Part shown: in pieces, positions 9,638-38,655 of the stretch
How the letters are laid out: each line of letters opens with the position of its first letter
How positions within the stretch are numbered: position 1 is the first letter of the stretch
From: Gemmatimonadota bacterium
GTDB taxonomy: Bacteria; Gemmatimonadota; Gemmatimonadetes; Longimicrobiales; Gaopeijiaceae
NCBI GenBank assembly: GCA_016209885.1
Contig: JACQVF010000115.1
Location: 31,472 to 95,471 of the forward strand
Direction: 5' to 3'
Length of the DNA stretch: 64,000 bases
Translations under genes and position numbers: made by a program
The notes under the pieces: model-generated
Told to the model about the DNA's origin: nothing
Seen by the model: the letters and a program-made list of their open reading frames with translations, nothing else
Database searches by the model: none

Positions 9638-11023
9638 ATGAGCGAGGTGGGAATCCGGACCGACGGCGCGGCGGGCGAACACCCGCGGCTGCGGGCGCTC
9701 GGGCTGCATCGTCGCGAGCTCCGCGCCTGGGCGATGTACGACTGGGCGAACTCCGCCTTCGCGACCACGGTCATGGCCGCGGTGCTGCCCATCTACTACG
9801 TCCGAGTGGCCGCCGCAGACCGACCCCCCAACGTCGCGCTGGCGTACTGGAGCTACACCGCATCCGTCAGCCTGCTGCTCATCGCCATCGCGTCCCCCGT
9901 GCTGGGGGCAATGGCCGATTACCTGGGGGCCAAGAAGCGGTTCCTGGCCGGGTTCGTGGGGCTCGGCGTCGTCGGTACCGCCTGCCTCTACTTCGTGAGC
10001 CGCGGGGACTGGCTCCTCGCCTCCATCTGCTTCCTCGTGGGGAACGCCGGGTTCGCCGGATCCATCATCTTCTCGGACGGCCTATTGCCCCACATCGCCC
10101 GCGCCGACGAGATCGACCGCGTATCGGCCGGCGGCTGGGCCCTGGGCTACGTGGGGGGCGGACTCCTCCTGCTCATCAACCTGATCATGATCCAGCGGCC
10201 GGGGCTCTTCGGCTTCGCCGATGCCGCCGCGGCTACCCGTGCGGCCTTCGTCACCGTCGCGGTCTGGTGGGCGGCCTTCTCCGTTCCCATCCTGCGCTCC
10301 GTCCCCGAGCCGCCGCGGCGGTTGCAGGCCGCCGAAGCCCTCCACGCGAACGCGATCCGCGTGGCGTTCCGCCGCCTCCATGAGACCGTCGGCGAGATTC
10401 GCGAGTACCGCGAGGTCGTCACGATGCTGGTCGCATTCTGGTTCTACTCGGACGGCATCGGCACCATCATCAAGGTCGCAGCCGCCTATGCCACCTCCAT
10501 CGGCATCATCGGCGAGGCGTCGCTCCTGGGCGCGCTCCTCTTCGTCCAGCTCGTGGGCATACCGTTCACCTTCCTCTTCGGCACGCTCGGCGACCGCATC
10601 GGCGCAAAGAGCGGGATCTACCTGGCCCTGGGCATCTACGTGCTCATCGCGATGCTGGGATACTTCATGACCCGGGCCTGGCACGTCTGGGCGCTCGCCT
10701 TCGGGATCGGCATGGTCCAGGGTGGCGCACAGGCCCTCAGCCGCTCCCTCTACGCCACCATGATTCCGCGCACGAGATCGGCAGAGTTCTTCGGGTTCTT
10801 CAGCGTCTTCGAAAAGTTCGCCGGAATCGCCGGACCCGCATTGTTCGGACTCGTCAGCCAACTGACCGGCACCGGACGCCTCGGCATCCTCTCGCTGCTC
10901 GTCTTCTTCCTCGGCGGAATCCTCCTCCTCACTCGCGTGGATGTGAAGGAGGGAAGGCGAGTCGCCCGTCTCGAGAACGCCAAGCTCGCACCCGCCTCAA
11001 CCCCGAGCCCGCCGATCCTCTAA
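9638..11023 (+). CDS. MFS transporter (UMF1/MFS_1-like)
   Basis: ATG at 9638 inside the longer ORF. About 12 predicted hydrophobic segments; 461 aa. Confidence 0.7.
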   Translation: MSEVGIRTDGAAGEHPRLRALGLHRRELRAWAMYDWANSAFATTVMAAVLPIYYVRVAAADRPPNVALAYWSYTASVSLLLIAIASPVLGAMADYLGAKKRFLAGFVGLGVVGTACLYFVSRGDWLLASICFLVGNAGFAGSIIFSDGLLPHIARADEIDRVSAGGWALGYVGGGLLLLINLIMIQRPGLFGFADAAAATRAAFVTVAVWWAAFSVPILRSVPEPPRRLQAAEALHANAIRVAFRRLHETVGEIREYREVVTMLVAFWFYSDGIGTIIKVAAAYATSIGIIGEASLLGALLFVQLVGIPFTFLFGTLGDRIGAKSGIYLALGIYVLIAMLGYFMTRAWHVWALAFGIGMVQGGAQALSRSLYATMIPRTRSAEFFGFFSVFEKFAGIAGPALFGLVSQLTGTGRLGILSLLVFFLGGILLLTRVDVKEGRRVARLENAKLAPASTPSPPIL

Positions 11024-28029: not shown

Positions 28030-29054
28030 GTGAGCGGGCCCGGGTCCGGCGGCGCGCGGACGGTGCGCCTGGGACCGGGGGCAGAGTTCGACCTGATCCG
28101 CCGTATCCTCGGCCGCTCCGAGCCGCCAGCCCTCGGTGCCGTGCGCGTGGGGCCCGGCGACGACTGTGCGGTCGTCCAGGGAGATGGGATCGCGATCTCG
28201 TGCGACCTCAGCGTCGAGGATGTCCATTTCCGGCGCGCCTGGCTGGAGCCCGAGGAGATCGGCTACCGCGCCGCTGCGGCGGCGCTGAGCGACCTGGCGG
28301 CGGTGGCGGCGGCGCCCATCGGGATCCTGGCGGCGATGGCGATCCCCGCGCGCGACGGCGAAGCCGTCGGGTTGCAGGTTGCCGAGGGGATCACTGCCGC
28401 GGCCCGGGACGTGGGCGCCGCGCTCCTGGGCGGGGACGTTTCCCGGTCGCCGGGACCCCTGGTCATCGACGTCATCGCGGTGGGAGAGGCACCGAATCCG
28501 ATCCTGCGCAGCGGCGCGAGGCCGCAGGATGAGCTCTGGGTCACCGGCGAGCTGGGGTGTAGTGCCGCGGTGGTGCGCCAGCTTCAGGTGCAGGGAACGC
28601 CGGGCGCGGAGGCCCGCCAGCGTTTCGCCCGGCCCCGCCCCCGCACCACCGAGGCACGCTGGCTGGCCGCGCACGTGGAGCTCCATGCCATGATCGATCT
28701 CTCCGACGGGCTCGCCGGCGACGCGGGGCACATCGCGGCCGCCAGCGGGGTCGCGGTCGTCCTGGACCTGGAGGGCATTCCGATTCACGCGGCGGCGCGT
28801 GAGGTGGCGGCCACCCACGAGGACGCGCTGCGGCTCGCTCTTGCGGGTGGCGAGGACTACGAGCTCTGCTTCGCGGCGCCCGCGGGTGCCGTGGAGCCGG
28901 TGCGCGAGGCGTTCAGGGAGCGATTCGGGATCGCGCTCACCCGGGCGGGCCGCGTCACGGAGGGGGAGGGGGTGTGGGTCGAGGATCCCGTTGGCGGCCG
29001 ACCCCGGCCGACTCCCTTCCGCGGCTTCGACCATTTCCGCGGCGGAGTGTCCGC

Positions 29055-29058
<4 letters not shown>
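28030..29058 (+). CDS. thiL: Thiamine-monophosphate kinase
   Basis: AIR-synthase-related fold motifs (GPGDDCAVV, EDVHF, LGGDVSRSP). Confidence 0.8.
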
Positions 29059-31523: not shown

Positions 31524-32477
31524 CTAGCGCCGGCCGCCTGCGTCGTCGCCGGAAGCTTCCGCCTCACGGACCGCCGCCGTGTCCCGCGCCCGGCTCGCGA
31601 TGGCCAGGACCTGGCGCGCGGCCTCGACCAGTTCGGCGTCGGCGCCCTCCACCCGCCGCGGGGCGTCGTCGCCCGCCGGCAGGGATGCCCGGGCGCGCTC
31701 GGGAGCCGCAGCCGTAGCGCCGCCGGACGGCGCCTGGAGAAAGGGACGGAGCAGGTCGATGGGGAGGGGGAAGAGCGTGGTCGAGTTCTTCTCGGCCGCC
31801 ACCTCCACGGCGGTCTGCAGGAAGCGGAGTTGCAGCGCGATAGGTTCCTGGGCGATGATCCGGGCTGCCTGCGCCAGCTTCTGGGACGCCTGGTACTCGC
31901 CTTCCGCCCCGATCACCTTGGCGCGCCGCTCCCGCTCCGCCTCCGCCTGCTTCGCCATGGCGCGCTTCATCTCCTGAGGAAGATCGATGTCCTTGATCTC
32001 CACCGCCGTGACCTCGAGCCCCCAGGGATCGGTGCCCTCGTCGATGATGTCGCGGATCACCTCGTTGATCTGCTCCCGCTTGGCCAGCACCTCATCCAGT
32101 TCCGACTGGCCGATCACGCTGCGCAGGGTGGTCTGGGCGAGCTGGCTGACGGCGAAGTGGTAGTCCTCAATCTCCACCACCGCCTTCACCGGGTCCATCA
32201 CCCGGTAATACACGACCGCATTGATCTTCACGCTCACGTTGTCCCGGGTGATCGTGTCCTGCGGCGCGATGTCCAGGGTACGAATCCGCAGGTCGACCCG
32301 CCGCATCCGCTCCACGAAGAACGGAACCAGGAAGAGGAGCCCTGGACCCTTCGACCCCGTCAGCTTGCCTAGCCGGAACACCACTGCACGCTCGTATTGC
32401 CAGAGGATCCGAAGGCTCGTAAGGATCGCGGCTCCGGAGAAGATTGCAGTGGGAACCCAGATCGAGCTCAGGTCCAT
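31524..32477 (-). CDS. SPFH/Band-7 (stomatin-like) membrane protein
   Basis: N-terminal TM, SPFH core ([11 protein letters not shown] ... [14 protein letters not shown]), Ala/Glu-rich coiled tail. The ATG at 32477 was chosen inside the longer ORF. Confidence 0.8.
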
Positions 32478-32820
32478 GATAACCCCACGCGGCGAGGGAA
32501 CGAGGGGCGACCTGCGCCGCCCCCTGCTCGAAGGGTCGCTCGCCCCGCCCAGGGATGCAAGGGCGATGAACAGCGCTGAACGCCATGAACTCCGGCGAAC
32601 TCCGATGAACTCCGACCCGAATGGCGGCCGTCCGCCCGGCGAACCGCCCCTCTGCCGGTCCCGCCGTTCCTCGCCGCCGGAACCCCGAGCCGCGTCCGCC
32701 GCCCGCCACCGAACCGCAACGCTCCTTGGGCGGCGGAGAACGGCTTGTGCGGCCTGATGTGCGGCCGCGACCGGGGTTGACACCGTAGGAGAGCCGGGAC
32801 AGGTTTTCCTTGCACATCGG

Positions 32821-32893
32821 GGCGGCGTAGCTCAGCTGGTAGAGCAGCGGAATCATAATCCGTGGGTCGGGGGTTCGAATCCCTCCGCCGCTA
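32821..32893 (+). tRNA. tRNA with CAT anticodon (elongator Met or lysidine-modified Ile2; not initiator-like)
   Basis: Manual cloverleaf: acceptor GGCGGCG/CGCCGCT, D-arm GCTC-AGCTGGTA-GAGC, anticodon stem GCGGA/TCCGT, loop ATCATAA (CAT), T-arm GGGGG-TTCGAAT-CCCTC, discriminator A. No encoded CCA. The anticodon stem lacks the three G-C pairs of initiator tRNA. Confidence 0.8.
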
Positions 32894-33002
32894 CTTGTCC
32901 TACTTTGGACAGGCCAGCGACTTCGGTTGTTGGCCTGTTCGCGTTCTCCGGCCTTGACCCTGTACCTGAGTATAGAGTGCAGATTCCGCCGAGGTGAAGA
33001 AC

Positions 33003-33440
33003 ATGACGAGCCACGAACGCCTGCGCATCGGCACGGTTGCCGCCCGAGCCGGGGTGAACGTGCAGACGCTCCGGTACTACGAGCGGCGCGGGCTCCTCGC
33101 GAGACCGGAGCGCTCGCCGTCCGGCTATCGCGAATACGGACCGGAGACGGTGCGGATCATTCGCTTCATCAAGCGCGCCCAGGAGCTCGGCTTCACGCTG
33201 CGCGAGATCCAGGATCTGTTGCGCCTGCGCGAGGCGGGCGGCCGGAACCGCCGCCGGGCGCGACAACTCGCCGGTGCGAAGATCCAGGACGTCGATCAGA
33301 AGATCTGGCGGCTTCAGTCCATCAAGCGGGCGCTGGTGACGCTCGTCGAGTCGTGCGCGTGCGCCGGTTCCGAGCCCGAGTGCCCGATCCTCGAGGCGCT
33401 GGATGACGACGCTGTGGAACGGAACGGAGGGGCGCGATGA
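33003..33440 (+). CDS. MerR-family metal-responsive transcriptional regulator
   Basis: N-terminal HTH (RIGTVAARAGVNVQTLRYYERRGLL), coiled-coil dimerisation region, C-terminal Cys cluster CACAGSEPEC typical of metal-sensing MerR/ZntR/CueR-type proteins. Confidence 0.8.
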   Translation: MTSHERLRIGTVAARAGVNVQTLRYYERRGLLARPERSPSGYREYGPETVRIIRFIKRAQELGFTLREIQDLLRLREAGGRNRRRARQLAGAKIQDVDQKIWRLQSIKRALVTLVESCACAGSEPECPILEALDDDAVERNGGAR

Positions 33441-33721
33441 CGCTCGGAACCCGGCCGTGGCGGCTTCCGGCGTATGCATCGCTCTTCGCCTCCTTCGCCA
33501 CCCTGGCGTGCTGCGCGCTGCCCTCGCTCCTCGTTCTGCTGGGCTTTGGGGCAAGCGTCGCGTCCTTTCTCTCCGCAGCTCCCTGGTTGGTTGTCCTGTC
33601 CCGCCACAAGGACTGGGTGTTTGCCGTTGCCGGGCTCCTGATCGCATTCAACGCCTATTGCGTGTACGGGCTGGTGCCTCGCACGGCGGGGCGAGGCCTG
33701 CGGTGTACGGCGGACGAGTAG
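33437..33721 (+). CDS. MerT-like mercuric/heavy-metal transport protein, interrupted by an in-frame TAG (same frame continues to 33844)
   Basis: ATG overlaps the merR stop. First TM carries the MerT Cys-Cys pair (TLACCALPSLLVLLGFG). After the TAG at 33719-33721 the same frame encodes QAC...GLYALGFFVAYLLGPIL, resembling MerT loop Cys plus TM3. Could be a pseudogene, a MerF-like 2-TM variant, or a sequencing error. Confidence 0.5.
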   Translation: MTLGTRPWRLPAYASLFASFATLACCALPSLLVLLGFGASVASFLSAAPWLVVLSRHKDWVFAVAGLLIAFNAYCVYGLVPRTAGRGLRCTADE

Positions 33722-33840
33722 CAGGCGTGCGAGGCCGCGGGCCGCTTCAGCCGACTGCTGCTCTGGGGGTCCGTGGGTCTGTACGCCCTCGGCTTCTTCG
33801 TTGCATACCTTCTGGGTCCGATCCTCTGGAGGCTCGACGC

Positions 33841-34695
33841 ATGAAGCTCCGGGTGCTCGGACTGCTGCTCTTCGCCTTCTCGCCACTCCTCGCGTCGAGC
33901 GCGGCGGCTCAGGGCCACGGGCCAGCGTACGGGCTCTCCACGCCCACGCTGGGCAAGGGCGGCTGGAGTGTGGACGTGGCCGTGATGAGCAGGCTGGTCG
34001 GCAGCACCGAGATGGCGATGATGCGCCCGATGATCACCTACGGGATCACGGAAGACGTTCAGGTGTCGGTCTCGCTGCCGATGTCGCTCTACGTGCCACA
34101 AGGCTTGCCGGCGGCGCACTCGATGGCCAGAATGCCGACGAGTCCCGATATCGAGGCGCTGCTGGGCTGGCGGTTCCATCGCGAAGGGACAGCCGTCGGC
34201 TCCCGCCTGGAGTCGACCGCGTACGTGGGCTTCGACTATCCGACGGACCCGGTGCGTGGGGGTGCGCGCACCGCGCCCGGCCTCTACGGAGCGGTGGTCA
34301 CGGGCTACGCGTCCCGGACCATCTATGGATGGGTGGGAGGGCTCTACCGGCGCTACATGACCCCGATCGGTGATACGGCCGATCATCCCGCCGATGTCGC
34401 GATGTACAGTGTCGTGCTCGGATACCGTCCACCGCCCTTCCGGAAGGACTACCCGCACCCCGACTGGCGCGTGTTTGTCGAAGCGGTCGGGGAGCACCTC
34501 GCGAGAGATGTCGTCGTCGGCGTACCCCGCGCCGACACGGGCGGCCACCAGATCTTCGTGGGACCGACGCTCCTCGGGCTCTACGGCTCGTGGGGCGTGT
34601 CGGGTGGCCCGGTGTTCCCCGTCTACCGCCGGGTGAACGGCTCGCAGCTCCGGGAACGGATGCGGTTCGTCGTGAACACCACTTTCTGGTTCTGA
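33841..34695 (+). CDS. Outer-membrane beta-barrel protein (signal peptide, C-terminal ...TTFWF)
   Basis: Cleavable signal peptide MKLRVLGLLLFAFSPLLASSAAAQ, alternating beta-strand pattern, C-terminal aromatic residue typical of OMPs; 284 aa. Confidence 0.5.
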   Translation: MKLRVLGLLLFAFSPLLASSAAAQGHGPAYGLSTPTLGKGGWSVDVAVMSRLVGSTEMAMMRPMITYGITEDVQVSVSLPMSLYVPQGLPAAHSMARMPTSPDIEALLGWRFHREGTAVGSRLESTAYVGFDYPTDPVRGGARTAPGLYGAVVTGYASRTIYGWVGGLYRRYMTPIGDTADHPADVAMYSVVLGYRPPPFRKDYPHPDWRVFVEAVGEHLARDVVVGVPRADTGGHQIFVGPTLLGLYGSWGVSGGPVFPVYRRVNGSQLRERMRFVVNTTFWF

Positions 34696-34707
34696 CGAGG
34701 AGCAGGT

Positions 34708-35229
34708 ATGAAGCGCGCGGCGTTGTGGGTCGCCTTCCTGGTTGCGCTCGCTCCCGGCAGCGCCCCGGCTCAGCTCGAGGAGATGCATCAGACCATCTTC
34801 GGGATGGACTGAGCGGTCTGTGCCCACGCCGTGCGCGTGGCCGTGCAGAAGCTCGAGGGCGTGGAAGCCATCGAGGTCAGCCTGAACCGGGGACTTGCCG
34901 TGATCAGGTTCAGGCCCGACAACGCCCTGACCGTGGATCAGGTGCGCCAGGTGATCCAGCAGAGCGGGTTCACGCCCAAGGAGGCCGAGGTTCGCATCGC
35001 CGGCAGGCTGACCGAGCAGCAGGGCCGGCTCATCTTGCCCGTGGGCGACCGGGACCGCGGCTATGTGCTGCGGGAACGGCCCGGATTCGATGGAGTGCTC
35101 GCGAAGCTCAGGGCGGCGGCACTCGACCGCGAGGTGGTCGTTGAAGGGCTGGTGCCCGAACCCGGCGACCGCGGGGAGGGCTCCTGGACGCTGGAAGTGC
35201 GCCGGTTCTCCGCGACCTCCGGAACCTGA
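34708..35229 (+). CDS. Periplasmic heavy-metal-associated (MerP-like) protein, candidate selenoprotein: in-frame TGA (34810-34812) at the first Cys of the GMxCxxC motif
   Basis: AGGAG RBS 7 nt upstream. Signal peptide, then TIFGMD-[TGA]-AVCAHAV aligning residue-for-residue with the HMA/MerP GMTCAAC metal-binding loop. The frame stays open and the downstream sequence fits the HMA ferredoxin-like fold (VQKLEGVEAIEVSL...), with a ~100-aa C-terminal extension. Confidence 0.6.
34824..34840 (+). promoter_or_regulatory. Candidate bacterial SECIS hairpin for the HMA TGA (stem CCACGC/GCGTGG, loop CGUGC)
   Basis: Hairpin begins 11 nt after the TGA, the spacing seen for the E. coli fdhF SECIS. Only 6 bp, so it could arise by chance in GC-rich DNA. 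Confidence 0.3.
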
Positions 35230-35411
35230 CAGGAGGGCCGGGAAGGTACCTGGGGTGCTCGGGTTTCCTCGAACGCCCCGGTTCGGTCTGTCCCTGGTTC
35301 GATCCTTTCCCGCCGATCCGTCCCCCTTGCCCGTCCCCGCGCTGCGCGGAAGATTCCCCGGCATCCGGCGACCCGCGCCGGTTCTTCGCGCCCCAGGTGC
35401 TGGAGGCACCG

Positions 35412-36887
35412 ATGAAGCCCATTCGTTTCTCGGCGCGCCGCCTTCTCGTCGCACTCGCTCTCGTCTTCGGCGCTGGGCCGTACGCGGTGGGAGCCGCGGG
35501 GCAGGAAGCCGCCCGGCCCCTCGCCTTCACGAACGTGAACGTGGTGCCCATGGACCGGGAGCGGATCCTGGAGAACCAGACGGTCGTGGTGCAGGGCGAC
35601 AGGATCGGCGCGGTAGGTGGCGCAGCCTCGATTCCCGTGCCCGCGGACGCGCGCCGGATCGACGGCCGCGGGAAGTATCTGATGCCGGGCCTGGCGGAGA
35701 TGCATGCCCACATCCCGCCGCCGCAGGCAGAGGAGGCGTACGGGGCGGGGTATGTGGAGAACGTGCTCTTCCTCTACGTGGCCAGCGGCATCACCACCGT
35801 ACGCGGCATGCTCGGGCACCCGGCGCACCTCGAGCTCCGGCGGCGGGTCGTGGCCGGGGAGATCATCGGCCCGACGATCTACACGGCGGGACCGTCGTTC
35901 AGCGGGAGCAGCGTCCCCACCGTGGAGGTCGCCCGCCGCATGGTCACGGAGCAGAAGGCGGCCGGGTACGACTTCCTGAAGATCCATCCCGGGCTCAGCC
36001 GCGAGGTCTTCGACACGATGGTGGCGGTGGCGAGCCGGGTTGGGATCCATTTCGCAGGCCATGTGCCCGCAGCCGTGGGGCTCCGCCGCGCGCTCGAAGC
36101 GCGCTACGCCTCCATCGACCACCTGGATGGCTACCTGGAGATGCTGGTCGCGGACGGCGCAAGCCCGAACCTGTCCCGTGCGGGGTTCTTCGGGTCGAAC
36201 CTCGTCCGCTACGTCGATGAGGAGAAGATCGCCGGCCTCGCGTCGGCGACGCGCGACGCCGGGGTCTGGCTGATACCGACTCAGGTGCTCATCGAGAACT
36301 TCGCCACCCCGGAGGATCCCGAGTCCTTGGCCCGCAGGCCGGAGATGCGGTACGTGCCGGCGGCCATGCTCCGGGATTGGGTGCGGCGGAAAGCAGAGTT
36401 TATGGGTGATCCGGGCTATTCGCCCGAGACAGGCCGGCGGTTCATCGAGATCCGGGCGAAGCTGATCAAGGCGCTGCACGACGCGCGCGTTCCGCTCGCC
36501 CTGGGGTCCGACGCGCCCCAGGTGTTCAACGTGCCCGGCTTCTCCGCGCTACGGGAGTTGCGTGCCATGGTGGCGGCGGGGCTCACGCCGTACCAGGCGC
36601 TCGCTATGGGGACCCGGAACGTGGCGGTCTACTTCAACGCCCTCGACCGCGCGGGTACCGTGGAGGCAGGGAAGGTGGCGGATCTTCTTCTCGTGGATGG
36701 AAACCCGATCGCGGACGTTGGGAACGTCGAGCGGCGCGCGGGGGTTATGCTGCGCGGGCGCTGGCTGCCGGACGCGGAGATCCGCAGCCGCCTCGAGGCC
36801 ATGGCCGCGGGGTACCGCACGGGCGCGGCGCGCGAAGAGCCGCGGCCGGCGCACGCGATGGGCCGCTCAGCCCGCGCGGCGCGGTGA
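35412..36887 (+). CDS. Periplasmic amidohydrolase-family metal-dependent hydrolase
   Basis: GGAGG RBS. Signal peptide, HxH motif (AEMHAHIPP), amidohydrolase_1-like distal motifs (LALGSDAP, HLDG). Confidence 0.8.
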   Translation: MKPIRFSARRLLVALALVFGAGPYAVGAAGQEAARPLAFTNVNVVPMDRERILENQTVVVQGDRIGAVGGAASIPVPADARRIDGRGKYLMPGLAEMHAHIPPPQAEEAYGAGYVENVLFLYVASGITTVRGMLGHPAHLELRRRVVAGEIIGPTIYTAGPSFSGSSVPTVEVARRMVTEQKAAGYDFLKIHPGLSREVFDTMVAVASRVGIHFAGHVPAAVGLRRALEARYASIDHLDGYLEMLVADGASPNLSRAGFFGSNLVRYVDEEKIAGLASATRDAGVWLIPTQVLIENFATPEDPESLARRPEMRYVPAAMLRDWVRRKAEFMGDPGYSPETGRRFIEIRAKLIKALHDARVPLALGSDAPQVFNVPGFSALRELRAMVAAGLTPYQALAMGTRNVAVYFNALDRAGTVEAGKVADLLLVDGNPIADVGNVERRAGVMLRGRWLPDAEIRSRLEAMAAGYRTGAAREEPRPAHAMGRSARAAR

Positions 36888-36958
36888 GCGCAGCTTCGCC
36901 GGCCGGCCGTCTCTGCAGGCTCGCTTGAGAACCAGCTCTCGAACTCGTGGAGGCCGGG

Positions 36959-37429
36959 ATGGCAGACGTCGTCTACACCTCGGAGGTACGCATCGAGCGG
37001 GTGGGAGGGCCGCTGCGCCGGGCCTACCTGCCCGCCGAGGAGCAGCCGGTGCACTTCGGGATGCACGGCGCCCTCGCCCAGCACTACAAGGTCGATCCGG
37101 CGGCCCTCAAGCCACATGCGGCCACGTTGGATTACGTGGTCGCCGCGGCCGCCGGGTGACTGACCGGCACCCTGGGGGGCGCGCTGGAGGCGCGCGGGAT
37201 TGCGGCGGGGGACGGCCGACTCTGGGCCGAGGGGCGCGGCGAGATCGAGACCGATGAGGGCGTGCTCGTCATCCGTCGCATCTTCGTGTGCTACCACTTG
37301 CGGGCGAGCGCGTCACAGCGCGAGGCGGCGGAGCGGGCTCATTCCGTCCACCACGGGAAGTGCCCCGTCTACCGCACGATCCACCGCTGCGTGGACATCA
37401 CGACGGAGCTCGTGCTCGAGGAGGATTGA
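36959..37429 (+). CDS. OsmC/Ohr-family peroxiredoxin-like protein, candidate selenoprotein: in-frame TGA (37157-37159) at the peroxidatic Cys
   Basis: GGAGG 5 nt before the ATG at 36959. ...ATLDYVVAAAAG-[TGA]-LTGTL matches the OsmC first-Cys motif (P.ELLLAALAGC). The frame stays open to 37429 and contains the second OsmC motif HHGKCPVYRTI (CPVS-like resolving Cys). 156 codons, normal for the family. Confidence 0.65.
37179..37195 (+). promoter_or_regulatory. Candidate SECIS hairpin for the OsmC TGA (stem GCGCGC/GCGCGC, loop UGGAG)
   Basis: Stem starts 19 nt after the TGA; the apical loop with GG lies ~28 nt from the UGA, within the typical bacterial SECIS range. Confidence 0.3.
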
Positions 37430-37465
37430 GAAGGGCGCCGGGGCGGGAGGCGCCGCCGCCACCCC

Positions 37466-38655
37466 TCACGTGGAGTAGTACGCGGCGTTCTCGTCGATAT
37501 AGCCGTGGGTCAGGTCACAGCCGAAGGCTGTGGCCTCGCCCGCGCCGACCCCCAGGCTCACCTGGATCGTGACCGGGTCGCCGCCGAGCAACGCGCGCAC
37601 CTTCCCTTCGTCGGCCATCGCTCGCTCGCCGCCCCGCGCCACCAGCTCCCCACACAGGCGCACCTCGCTTTGCTCCGGCACGATCTCGCAGTCCACGCAC
37701 TTTCCCACCGCCATGAGAATGCGCCCGATATTGGGGTCGGCGCCGAAGATCATCGTTTTCACGAGCGGCGAGTTCGCGATAGACCTCGCGATCGTCCGCG
37801 CCTCGTCTTTACTCCGGGCTCCCGTCACCGTAGCCCGGAGGAGCTTGGTGGCCCCTTCGCCGTCGCGGGCGAGGATCTCCGCCATGCGGATGCAGGCGGC
37901 CAGGAGCGCCGGGAAGAACTCCACCTCCGGAACGGGACCGGCGAGCCCGTTCGCGAGGATCGCACAGGTGTCCGAGGTGCTCGTGTCCGAATCCACGGAG
38001 AGCATGTTGAACGAATCGGCCACGGCGGACCGGAGCATGCGGTCCAGCGGCTCGGCGTCGATCTCCGCGTCCGTGAAGACATAGGTGAGCATCGTGGCCA
38101 GGTTGGGAGCGATCATCCCGGAGCCCTTCGCCACGATGGTGAGCACAGCCGGGCCCACCGAGAGGGAAAGTGCCTTCGGGTGGGTGTCCGTGGTCATGAT
38201 GGCCCGAGCGCCCACGAGAGGGTCGTCCTGCAGCTCGGCGGCGATCCCCGCCAGCGCCTCCTCGATTCGCTCGATGGGGAGATGCCGGCCGATGACCCCG
38301 GTGGAGCTCATGAGAACCTCGTCCGCGGGGACGCCCAGAGCCCGTGCCGCCGCCTCGCCCATCCGCCGGGAGTTCCGGATTCCCTCTTCCCCCGTGGCCA
38401 CGTTCGCGTTCTTGCTGTTCGCCACGATGGCCCGCAACTGCCGCCGCCGGATGATCTCACGGCCCACGATGATGGGCGCGCCCGGGAACTTGTTGCGCGT
38501 GAAGACGGCGGCTGCCCGGGCGCGTACCTCCGAGTAAAAGACCGCCAGGTCTGTCTTTCCCAGCTCCTTGAGCCCGCAGTTACGGCCGGCACAGCGGAAG
38601 CCCCGCGGGAAGCGGGTCTTGGCGTGGAATTCGAACTCCGGCGTCAACGAGCTCA
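37466..38655 (-). CDS. argJ: Bifunctional glutamate N-acetyltransferase / amino-acid acetyltransferase
   Basis: ArgJ motifs (MLTYVFTDA, autoproteolytic ATML site, NIGRI); the internal ATG at 38655 gives ~396 aa. Confidence 0.9.

Follow-up and report, generated by a model that had tools for sequence, protein, structure and literature searches.

A conserved gene triad joins a probable selenocysteine-containing HMA protein to an outer-membrane barrel and a MerT-like protein in Gemmatimonadota

Introduction

When two nearby genes each carry an in-frame TGA codon at the position of a functional cysteine, do they, together with the genes around them, make up one selenium-dependent unit? The question is raised by a stretch of 64,000 nucleotides (hereafter the window) from contig JACQVF010000115.1 of a Gemmatimonadota bacterium assembly, GCA_016209885.1, built from metagenome data, in which six co-directional genes follow a tRNA gene. 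They encode a MerR-family regulator, a MerT-like protein with three transmembrane segments (the 3-TM protein), an outer-membrane protein (OMP), a protein with an HMA domain, an amidohydrolase, and an OsmC-like protein; the TGA codons, candidates for translation as selenocysteine (Sec, U), lie in the HMA and OsmC genes. An earlier note on this DNA had read all six genes as a single functional unit for the detoxification of metals and oxidants. The six genes and the two in-frame TGA codons are all found where that note placed them (Table 1), and gene neighborhoods in other genomes divide the set. Judged by those neighborhoods, the conserved unit is a triad of genes for the 3-TM protein, the OMP, and HMA(Sec), standing in the window behind the MerR-family regulator. 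The amidohydrolase and OsmC(Sec) appear to be unrelated neighbors, with no comparative support for functional coupling. We regard it as probable that the interval consists of a four-gene metal operon (32954-35229), an ordinary amidohydrolase, and a stand-alone OsmC-like selenoprotein.

Results

Gene order at related loci

Besides the window, 13 loci carry the OMP and HMA(Sec) genes. At every sufficiently complete locus (L001, L002, L008-L013, L019/L020, L021, and L022 in our designation), the genes of the 3-TM protein, the OMP, and HMA(Sec) lie side by side on one strand; at L003 the OMP and HMA genes stand by themselves, and a 3-TM gene was not detected. The amidohydrolase found in the window is absent from all 13, as is an intact OsmC gene. 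Orthologues of OsmC(Sec) lie among genes for a polymerase, a sigma-54 activator, a short-chain dehydrogenase/reductase, a major facilitator superfamily transporter, AhpC, and a citrate transporter, with no MerR, HMA, or OMP gene among these neighbors. Spacing within the window agrees with this division: the junctions from the regulator gene to the HMA gene measure -4, -4, and +12 nucleotides, and the next two measure 182 and 71. The proposed six-gene functional unit is thus contradicted by comparative data. The earlier note had further argued that two in-frame TGA codons only 2.3 kb apart point to one unit that uses Sec; this argument fails on synteny, because neither the amidohydrolase nor OsmC is linked to the triad elsewhere. 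As far as gene context can tell, HMA(Sec) and OsmC(Sec) are two independent selenoprotein genes of a Sec-using genome.

Metal-related genes are found beside the triad at a number of loci. An operon of the type merRT(P)A(B) adjoins it at five of the 13 (L002, L009, L010, L011, and L019), and at L011 the two form one co-directional string, merR-merT-merA-3TM-OMP-HMA. At L001 and L002 the operon itself contains a homologue of merC. P1B-ATPase genes follow or flank the triad at three of the 13 (L012, L021, and L022), and efflux genes of the resistance-nodulation-division (RND), Czc, or Cus types flank it at four (L001, L002, L012, and L022). At L019 (11-8380), on a 1.55-Mb contig from the Joint Genome Institute, a riboflavin operon (ribD/E/BA/H) is interposed between merR-T-P-A and the triad. 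The end of ribH and the 3-TM gene overlap, a hint that the 3-TM gene is transcribed together with the riboflavin genes.

Evidence for selenocysteine in the HMA protein

The HMA protein has a signal peptide, an HMA domain with the sequence GMD-U-AVC, and a C-terminal domain, modeled with a predicted local distance difference test score (pLDDT) of 84, that resembles an OB-fold barrel and has OB-fold structural matches. The in-frame TGA stands where the metal-binding motif GMxCxxC has its first Cys. At all 13 other loci (L001-3, L008-13, L019/21/22; Gemmatimonadota and one metagenome-assembled genome, or MAG, of Vicinamibacteria) the identical codon is TGA, and the protein is conserved on either side of it. 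Protein databases conceal this state. NCBI annotates the window gene as a truncated HMA domain protein of 132 residues, and nine of ten database homologues are open reading frames (ORFs) that begin just past the TGA (MCAHAV...), the tenth being a full-length Cys form with GMDCAPC. A profile search of 1.84 billion representatives recovered 723 clusters at E <= 1e-10. Among the best 150 of these, 119 lack their N-terminal part, 29 are Cys forms of full length with GMDCAPC (P0007 and 28 other representatives), and 2 have 'W' at the site.

Downstream of the TGA, a run of 21 nucleotides, GCCCACGCCGUGCGCGUGGCC, is near-invariant over ten loci, codon third positions included, while third positions in the flanking sequence vary. 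This run belongs to a hairpin resembling a selenocysteine insertion sequence (SECIS), whose upper stem CCACGC/GCGUGG (34824-34840) closes a CGUGC loop at 21-25 nucleotides from the U of the UGA. Its minimum free energy is -30 kcal/mol (z -1.9); 89% of cells in the hairpin alignment are paired, and L008 shows one compensatory change from G-C to A-U. The gene therefore combines the features expected of a selenoprotein gene: UGA where homologues have Cys, conservation in orthologues, and a 3' SECIS-like stem-loop with G/U in the loop. Since TGA is an ordinary stop codon for genes of the block and for their neighbors, a reassigned genetic code is excluded. The TGA of the HMA gene very probably encodes Sec, a judgment drawn from sequence comparison. 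A gene of the AIRS family 4 kb upstream (28030-29058) was considered as a possible selD and rejected, as it is ThiL (TIGR01379, 259.8 bits, above the cutoff).

The outer-membrane barrel

The OMP has a signal peptide and a C-terminus reading ...TTFWF, and it matches no Pfam or NCBIfam model, even at E = 1. We collected 421 homologues, and every one with a source name is a 'hypothetical' entry from a Gemmatimonadota MAG; a search of genome contigs with the OMP as query gave seven loci. An AlphaFold model built on a 55-sequence alignment predicts a 12-strand barrel (pLDDT 88, predicted template-modeling score 0.82). Its best matches in the PDB are FapF, the COG4313 channel 4rl8, and NanC, at TM-scores from 0.55 to 0.67, and PcoB is also among the structural matches. 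The prediction of a 12-strand barrel is confident, and the family has no name. The predicted barrel and the comparable size recall the COG4313, FapF, and NanC channels, but by sequence, with no Pfam match at E = 1, the protein is not a member of these families.

At L003, three genes lie directly upstream of the OMP-HMA(Sec) pair (608-2924). One encodes a membrane protein rich in Cys, another a periplasmic HMA protein of the Cys type (CPFC), and the third a true OMP of the COG4313/Phenol_MetA_deg family. We rejected a description of this locus as tandem OMP-HMA pairs, given that the first 'pair' is this set of three; the set is a Cys-based counterpart of the pairing of HMA protein with barrel.

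The MerT-like protein and its premature stop codon

MerT is a protein of three transmembrane (TM) helices with characteristic Cys pairs. The 3-TM protein is built alike: it crosses the membrane three times, with two adjacent Cys residues (CC) in TM1 and a further pair in the loop between TM2 and TM3. Against the Pfam MerT model it scores E 0.59, outside the family. Orthologues of 130-135 residues are intact at 12 loci. The earlier note was right that the start of the gene overlaps merR in an ATGA, at 33437, and had treated the gene as whole; it is interrupted by an in-frame TAG (33719-33721). The TAG aligns with a variable loop residue (Q, A, P, or S), where the 12 orthologues read through, and it would take away the third TM helix of the putative importer. 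Because the reading frame past the TAG is conserved as far as 33844, the TAG reflects either a nonsense mutation of recent date or an error in the MAG consensus.

One ortholog has a different feature. At L013, in the Vicinamibacteria MAG (CAWDZE010000008.1, 7627-7629), a TGA takes the place of the second Cys of the TM1 CC motif, giving LVC-U-TLP, and is followed by a perfect hairpin, GAGCCUAG-GU-CUAGGCUC, which genes of the Cys form lack. The L013 triad would thus hold two selenoproteins, with CU in the 3-TM protein and UxxC in the HMA protein. The TGA at the CC pair and the hairpin, found at this locus alone, confirm that the pair is a metal site with chalcogen ligands.

The regulator and its promoter

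For the MerR-family regulator, the best NCBIfam match is MerR (TIGR02051) with 126 bits, under the cutoff of 150.85, and CueR comes next with 109. We aligned it with Tn501 MerR and CueR. Its Cys residues are confined to a C-terminal loop, CAC-x6-C (the pattern CxC-x6-C), so the three-Cys Hg(II) ligand set of classical MerR is incomplete. Upstream, a -35 element TTGACC (32954-32959) is separated by an over-long spacer of 19-20 bp from a weak -10 element, GCAGAT or CAGATT, and the spacer holds an imperfect dyad, CTGTAC-CTGA-GTATAG (32960-32975). This layout is a hallmark of MerR-family promoters, as read from sequence. The orthologous regulators of L001 and L002 have an equivalent one, TTGACC-CTATAG-N4-CTATAG, and the promoter of the classical merR gene in L002 closely resembles the window operator. 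The search recommended by the earlier note for a MerR-type operator around 32950-33000 has therefore turned up a candidate (32954-32985), and its pairing of a MerR-type regulator with metal-handling genes is borne out for the first four genes, as an operon under putative MerR-family control. On the minus strand (32969-32998), a sigma-70-like match, TTCACC-18-TATACT, lies within the operator dyad; the palindrome itself probably accounts for the match, and not a divergent promoter.

The same note had held that this is not a classical mer operon. This is correct, as merA is absent and the MerT, MerP, and MerR models all score below cutoff (the HMA protein scores 33 bits against TIGR02052, MerP, which has a cutoff of 92.55). 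Its further point that a co-directional merR departs from the mer arrangement falls away, since the classical merR-T-P-A strings at L002, L009, L011, and L019 are also merR-first. At L021 (6433-6615), a 60-residue Cys-rich ORF (LCPACSECP...) that the window lacks lies between a ZntR/CadR-like regulator gene and the 3-TM gene.

OsmC(Sec) and the amidohydrolase

The OsmC-like protein matches Pfam family PF02566 with 43.8 bits (cutoff 27.5). Its TGA falls at the first catalytic Cys, the peroxidatic one (AAAG-U-LTGT), and the second, resolving Cys is intact (KCPVY). In the Sec column, 120 homologues have Cys in 57 cases and 'W' in 44, and 10 are truncated; the second Cys (CPV) is invariant in all 113 aligned sequences. 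A TGA was confirmed in the DNA of L004 (Gemmatimonadota), L005/L006 and L007 (Promineifilaceae), and L015. The last of these corresponds to protein P0014, the one 'W' entry checked, whose database 'W' is a TGA at 1972-1974; most likely, the 44 'W' entries (in the range P0011-P0113) come from Joint Genome Institute (JGI) gene calls that translated TGA as Trp. The 'G' of homologue P0116 is a genuine GGA codon. A hairpin, GCGCGC-UGGAG-GCGCGC, 23-39 nucleotides from the U of the UGA, is conserved in all five Sec forms. Its folding z-score is not significant, and it does not discriminate Sec forms, because the Cys-form gene of L018 can form a nearly identical helix. Both this hairpin and that of the HMA gene vary so little that covariation statistics are weak and shuffle controls uninformative. 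By comparison of homologues, this TGA too very probably encodes Sec. The assertion that neither TGA is a chance stop or an error thus holds for both genes, given the same TGA codon at 13 of 13 HMA loci and the OsmC genes confirmed in L004, L005/6, L007, and L015.

No relative with a solved structure was found by sequence for the OsmC query. OsmC-like selenoproteins (COG1765/PF02566) have been known since 2005 from the Sargasso Sea and were seen again in the Global Ocean Sampling (GOS) survey of 2008 (PMC1088965, PMC2398784), and the family is still listed in reviews of 2022 and 2026. The window protein shares the fold, Sec at the first Cys, and widespread Cys homologues, and is a member from Gemmatimonadota; apart from the published motif 'UxxT', against U-L-T-G-T here, nothing differs materially. 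OsmC(Sec) is probably a stand-alone OsmC-like hydroperoxide reductase, an ordinary member of a known family, in which Sec would be the peroxidatic residue and the Cys of CPV the resolving one.

The closest solved relatives of the amidohydrolase are 2p9b, 3mtw, and 2qs8. By this similarity it is a predicted secreted enzyme of the prolidase or Cc2672-carboxypeptidase type with no visible link to metals, and its suggested action on an organometal or adduct finds no backing among these relatives.

The tRNA gene and the flanking region

The block lies between a stomatin-like gene and argJ in a window of about 70% G+C content (GC). The earlier note had ended the block where argJ begins on the opposite strand. 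Its strand and its contact with the block stand; argJ, being convergent, abuts with its 3' end (stop at 37466) and not its start. Housekeeping genes lie on both sides: dnaG, recJ, ksgA, glyA, thiL, and eno upstream, together with the stomatin-like gene, and argJ, tilS, hpt, ftsH, folP, and ileS downstream.

Horizontal acquisition at the tRNA gene had also been suggested. The window has no repeat of the tRNA-Met 3' end. A Pfam scan of 30 window ORFs, with small and low-GC3 ORFs left unscanned (GC3 being GC at third codon positions), found housekeeping families and none of recombinase, mobile-element, or Sec-machinery type. GC (0.67-0.71) and GC3 (0.81-0.89) of the block are the same as in its housekeeping neighbors, and no tRNA gene stands beside the module at the nine other loci scanned (L001-L003 and L008-L013). 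These findings count against a tRNA-targeted island, and the tRNA adjacency looks incidental.

Table 1. Features of the interval, in window positions.
Feature	Position	Strand	Basis
tRNA-Met, anticodon CAT	32821-32894	+	ARAGORN; Rfam tRNA, 68.4 bits
MerR-type promoter/operator	32954-32985	+	Sequence reading; putative function
MerR-family regulator	33003-33440 (alternative GTG start 32994)	+	Pfam MerR_1, MerR, MerR-DNA-bind
MerT-like 3-TM protein gene	33437-33844	+	ATGA overlap with regulator; translation
Premature TAG in MerT-like gene	33719-33721	+	Translation; orthologue alignment
OMP, predicted 12-strand beta-barrel	33841-34695	+	ATGA overlap with 3-TM gene; AlphaFold model
HMA(Sec)-OB protein	34708-35229	+	12-nt gap after OMP; Pfam HMA, E 3e-12
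UGA probably read as Sec, HMA gene	34810-34812	+	Replaces first Cys of CxxC
SECIS-like hairpin, HMA gene	34817-34849	+	Minimum free energy fold; conservation
Secreted amidohydrolase, signal peptide	35412-36887	+	182-nt gap; Pfam Amidohydro_1
OsmC-like selenoprotein	36959-37429	+	71-nt gap; Pfam OsmC
UGA probably read as Sec, OsmC gene	37157-37159	+	First catalytic Cys position
Candidate SECIS hairpin, OsmC gene	37179-37195	+	Conserved in Sec forms

Discussion

A putative route for a soft metal

From gene content, the conserved TGA codons and hairpins, synteny, and predicted folds, we infer a metal, a direction of transport, a mode of regulation, and transcript boundaries for the four-gene operon. 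A thiophilic metal ion would cross the outer membrane through the barrel. Hg(II) seems the likeliest ion, favored by linkage to mer genes; Cu(I)/Ag(I) or Cd/Pb are also possible. The Se/S pair of the periplasmic HMA-OB protein, an analogue of MerP, may capture the ion with very high affinity and quick exchange, a role that would suit a selenol, with its low pKa and very tight binding of Hg. The vicinal Cys residues of the MerT-like protein might then take over the ion and bring it into the cytoplasm, where MerA or an efflux ATPase, encoded elsewhere in the genome, would reduce or expel it. The metal-bound regulator would activate the operon by the DNA distortion usual for MerR proteins. In the window genome, this relay is possibly crippled by the TAG in the 3-TM gene, unless that codon is an assembly error.

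Several observations weigh against parts of this interpretation. Concerning the boundaries of the unit, a terminator scan of 32400-37700 found none, with 1.9 expected in shuffled sequences, and none was detected between the HMA gene and the amidohydrolase gene (a hairpin after the HMA stop codon, z = -0.7, is not significant). With no terminator detected, read-through transcription of all six genes is possible. At L002, the minus strand bears the frameshifted remains of an OsmC-like gene (10094-10560, ...FCPVYRSLHTAIAITAELVF), located downstream of merB at the contig end and about 4 kb from the triad; they are the only hint of an association of OsmC with metal clusters. Concerning mercury, a tblastn search with MerA of L002 found no match in the 64-kb window. 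The regulator scores below every NCBIfam equivalog cutoff and has Arg, not Cys, at the helix position used by sensors of Hg(II) and divalent metals, and the regulators at triads elsewhere are best matched by CueR (L008) or are ZntR/CadR-like (L009, L012, and L021). These pairings, together with the proximity of some triads to genes for Cus-type RND pumps and P1B-ATPases, speak for Cu, Ag, or Cd as much as for Hg. Sequence similarity of the 3-TM protein to MerT is marginal (merT_RC607, E ~1e-3, 19.5 bits against a cutoff of 130), and the inward direction of the relay would follow purely by analogy. Concerning Sec, none of selA, selB, selC, and selD was found in the 64-kb window, whose sole tRNA is that for Met, and shuffle statistics for covariation in the HMA hairpin, a helix that barely varies, are not significant.

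Alternative readings of the interval

Were the six genes from the MerR-family regulator to OsmC(Sec) one selenium-dependent operon for metal and oxidant detoxification, with the amidohydrolase acting on an organometal or adduct and OsmC(Sec) on peroxides produced by metal stress, their common direction and the lack of a detected intrinsic terminator would fit, as would the fact that both selenoproteins are thiol/selenol stress proteins. The OsmC-like remnant near the mer genes of L002 and a different amidohydrolase 1.4 kb from OsmC(Sec) in L004 could be cited as well. We nevertheless consider such an operon improbable: neither the amidohydrolase nor an intact OsmC gene accompanies the triad at the 13 other loci, OsmC(Sec) orthologues occur in unrelated contexts, gaps of 182 and 71 nucleotides contrast with the overlapping junctions upstream, and the amidohydrolase has relatives of prolidase and carboxypeptidase type. 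Quite another view would make both TGA codons nonsense mutations or sequencing errors and both genes pseudogenes. A premature TAG does exist in the operon, at 33719, the machinery for Sec was not found in the window, and NCBI annotates both genes as truncated proteins. Yet the same codon is TGA in independent assemblies from different phyla, 13 of 13 for HMA and four for OsmC, always at a catalytic or metal-binding Cys, with coding sequence conserved on both sides and a conserved hairpin after the TGA. By these comparative data the pseudogene explanation is effectively refuted, and we give it almost no credence.

For the triad itself, a different cargo is possible, if on the whole unlikely: Cu(I)/Ag(I) or Cd/Pb/Zn, with the HMA(Sec)-OB protein as a CusF- or CopZ-like chaperone and the barrel as a PcoB- or CopB-like partner of efflux pumps, in sequestration or export. 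The regulator here lacks the helix Cys of divalent-metal sensors, has a CueR-like loop, and takes CueR as its second-best NCBIfam match, and regulators elsewhere are closest to CueR (L008) and to ZntR/CadR (L021, L012). The L022 triad sits between CusCBA-like genes and a P1B-ATPase gene whose start overlaps the HMA gene, and that of L012 is followed by genes for a CopZ-like HMA protein and a P1B-ATPase. The OB-like C-terminal barrel of the HMA protein, and the presence of PcoB among the structural matches of the OMP, are in keeping with this. Mercury is nonetheless favored by the merA operons that adjoin the triad at five of 13 loci, once as a single co-directional string, by merC inside the operon at L001 and L002, by the MerT-like Cys architecture of the inner-membrane partner, and by the likeness of the window operator to the classical mer operator of L002. 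Whichever the metal, the module might be decaying in the window genome, the TAG having inactivated the relay and left the other genes as relics. The TAG removes the third TM helix at a point where 12 orthologues are intact, and the window operon lacks the merC of L001 and L002 and has no merA within 64 kb. We find decay rather doubtful, as the frame beyond the TAG is well conserved, which indicates a recent event or an error, the OMP, HMA(Sec), and regulator genes are intact with the SECIS preserved, and consensus errors are common in MAGs.

Significance and comparison with known systems

Our preferred reading of the interval remains the four-gene metal operon followed by two unconnected genes. 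On its function, we advance only tentatively that the triad is an undescribed, envelope-spanning, selenium-dependent relay for soft metals in Gemmatimonadota and Acidobacteriota, made up of a dedicated pore, a chaperone of the HMA-OB family, and a MerT-like importer that in some lineages would itself be a CU selenoprotein; the HMA-OB family would comprise hundreds of clusters, with roughly four Sec forms for each Cys form. If this is true, selenium availability would directly tune resistance to mercury and heavy metals in bacteria of soil and groundwater. Working as proposed, the triad would extend the textbook mercury uptake from MerP to MerT by a selenium ligand and a step at the outer membrane, and would link selenium supply to heavy-metal tolerance in abundant, poorly studied soil phyla. 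Bonds between Hg and Se are among the tightest of metal-ligand interactions, so a periplasmic Sec site could scavenge Hg(II) far below the range of a Cys-based MerP. Independent of function, two sets of database errors can be fixed: the HMA(Sec) family is stored as truncated 'HMA domain proteins' and 34-residue fragments, and in many OsmC selenoproteins the database sequence shows Trp where Sec belongs.

Selenoproteins with metal-binding sites have been described before. The GOS survey reported 'MerP', 'putative mercuric transport protein', and 'cation-transporting ATPase UxxC' among its selenoproteins (PMC2398784), and MerT-family selenoproteins with CU appear in the Haft preprint (10.1101/2022.07.06.499078). 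The window HMA protein resembles these in having Sec in place of Cys at its metal site, with a predicted role in handling mercury or other heavy metals, and the 3-TM protein of L013 likewise has CU. Possibly, the two GOS 'MerP' sequences are members of the window HMA family. The window HMA protein scores 45.6 bits, against a cutoff of 95, with NF041115 (UxxU metal-binding), having the motif UxxC and not UxxU, and 27 bits, against a cutoff of 375, with NF045683 (MerT_CopZ_Se, MerT/CopZ fusion-like), being a secreted two-domain protein with no MerT fusion. We found no description of a triad of 3-TM, OMP, and HMA-OB(Sec) proteins in the literature searched.

The closest known system is the MerP/MerT relay. 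Both have a periplasmic HMA protein with a two-chalcogen site and a 3-TM protein with CC in TM1 and a second Cys pair; the window shares with it a MerR-family activator and a promoter with a spacer of 19-20 bp and a dyad, and the triad is often linked to merA operons. In contrast to that relay, the first ligand in the triad is Sec and not Cys, the HMA protein of the window has an extra OB-like C-terminal domain, and a dedicated outer-membrane barrel always accompanies the triad. In the window, moreover, the 3-TM and HMA proteins fall below the MerT and MerP cutoffs, the regulator lacks a ligand of the Cys79/82 type, and the operon has no merA. The triad thus appears to be a variation on systems of the MerP/MerT type, one that has apparently gone unannotated.

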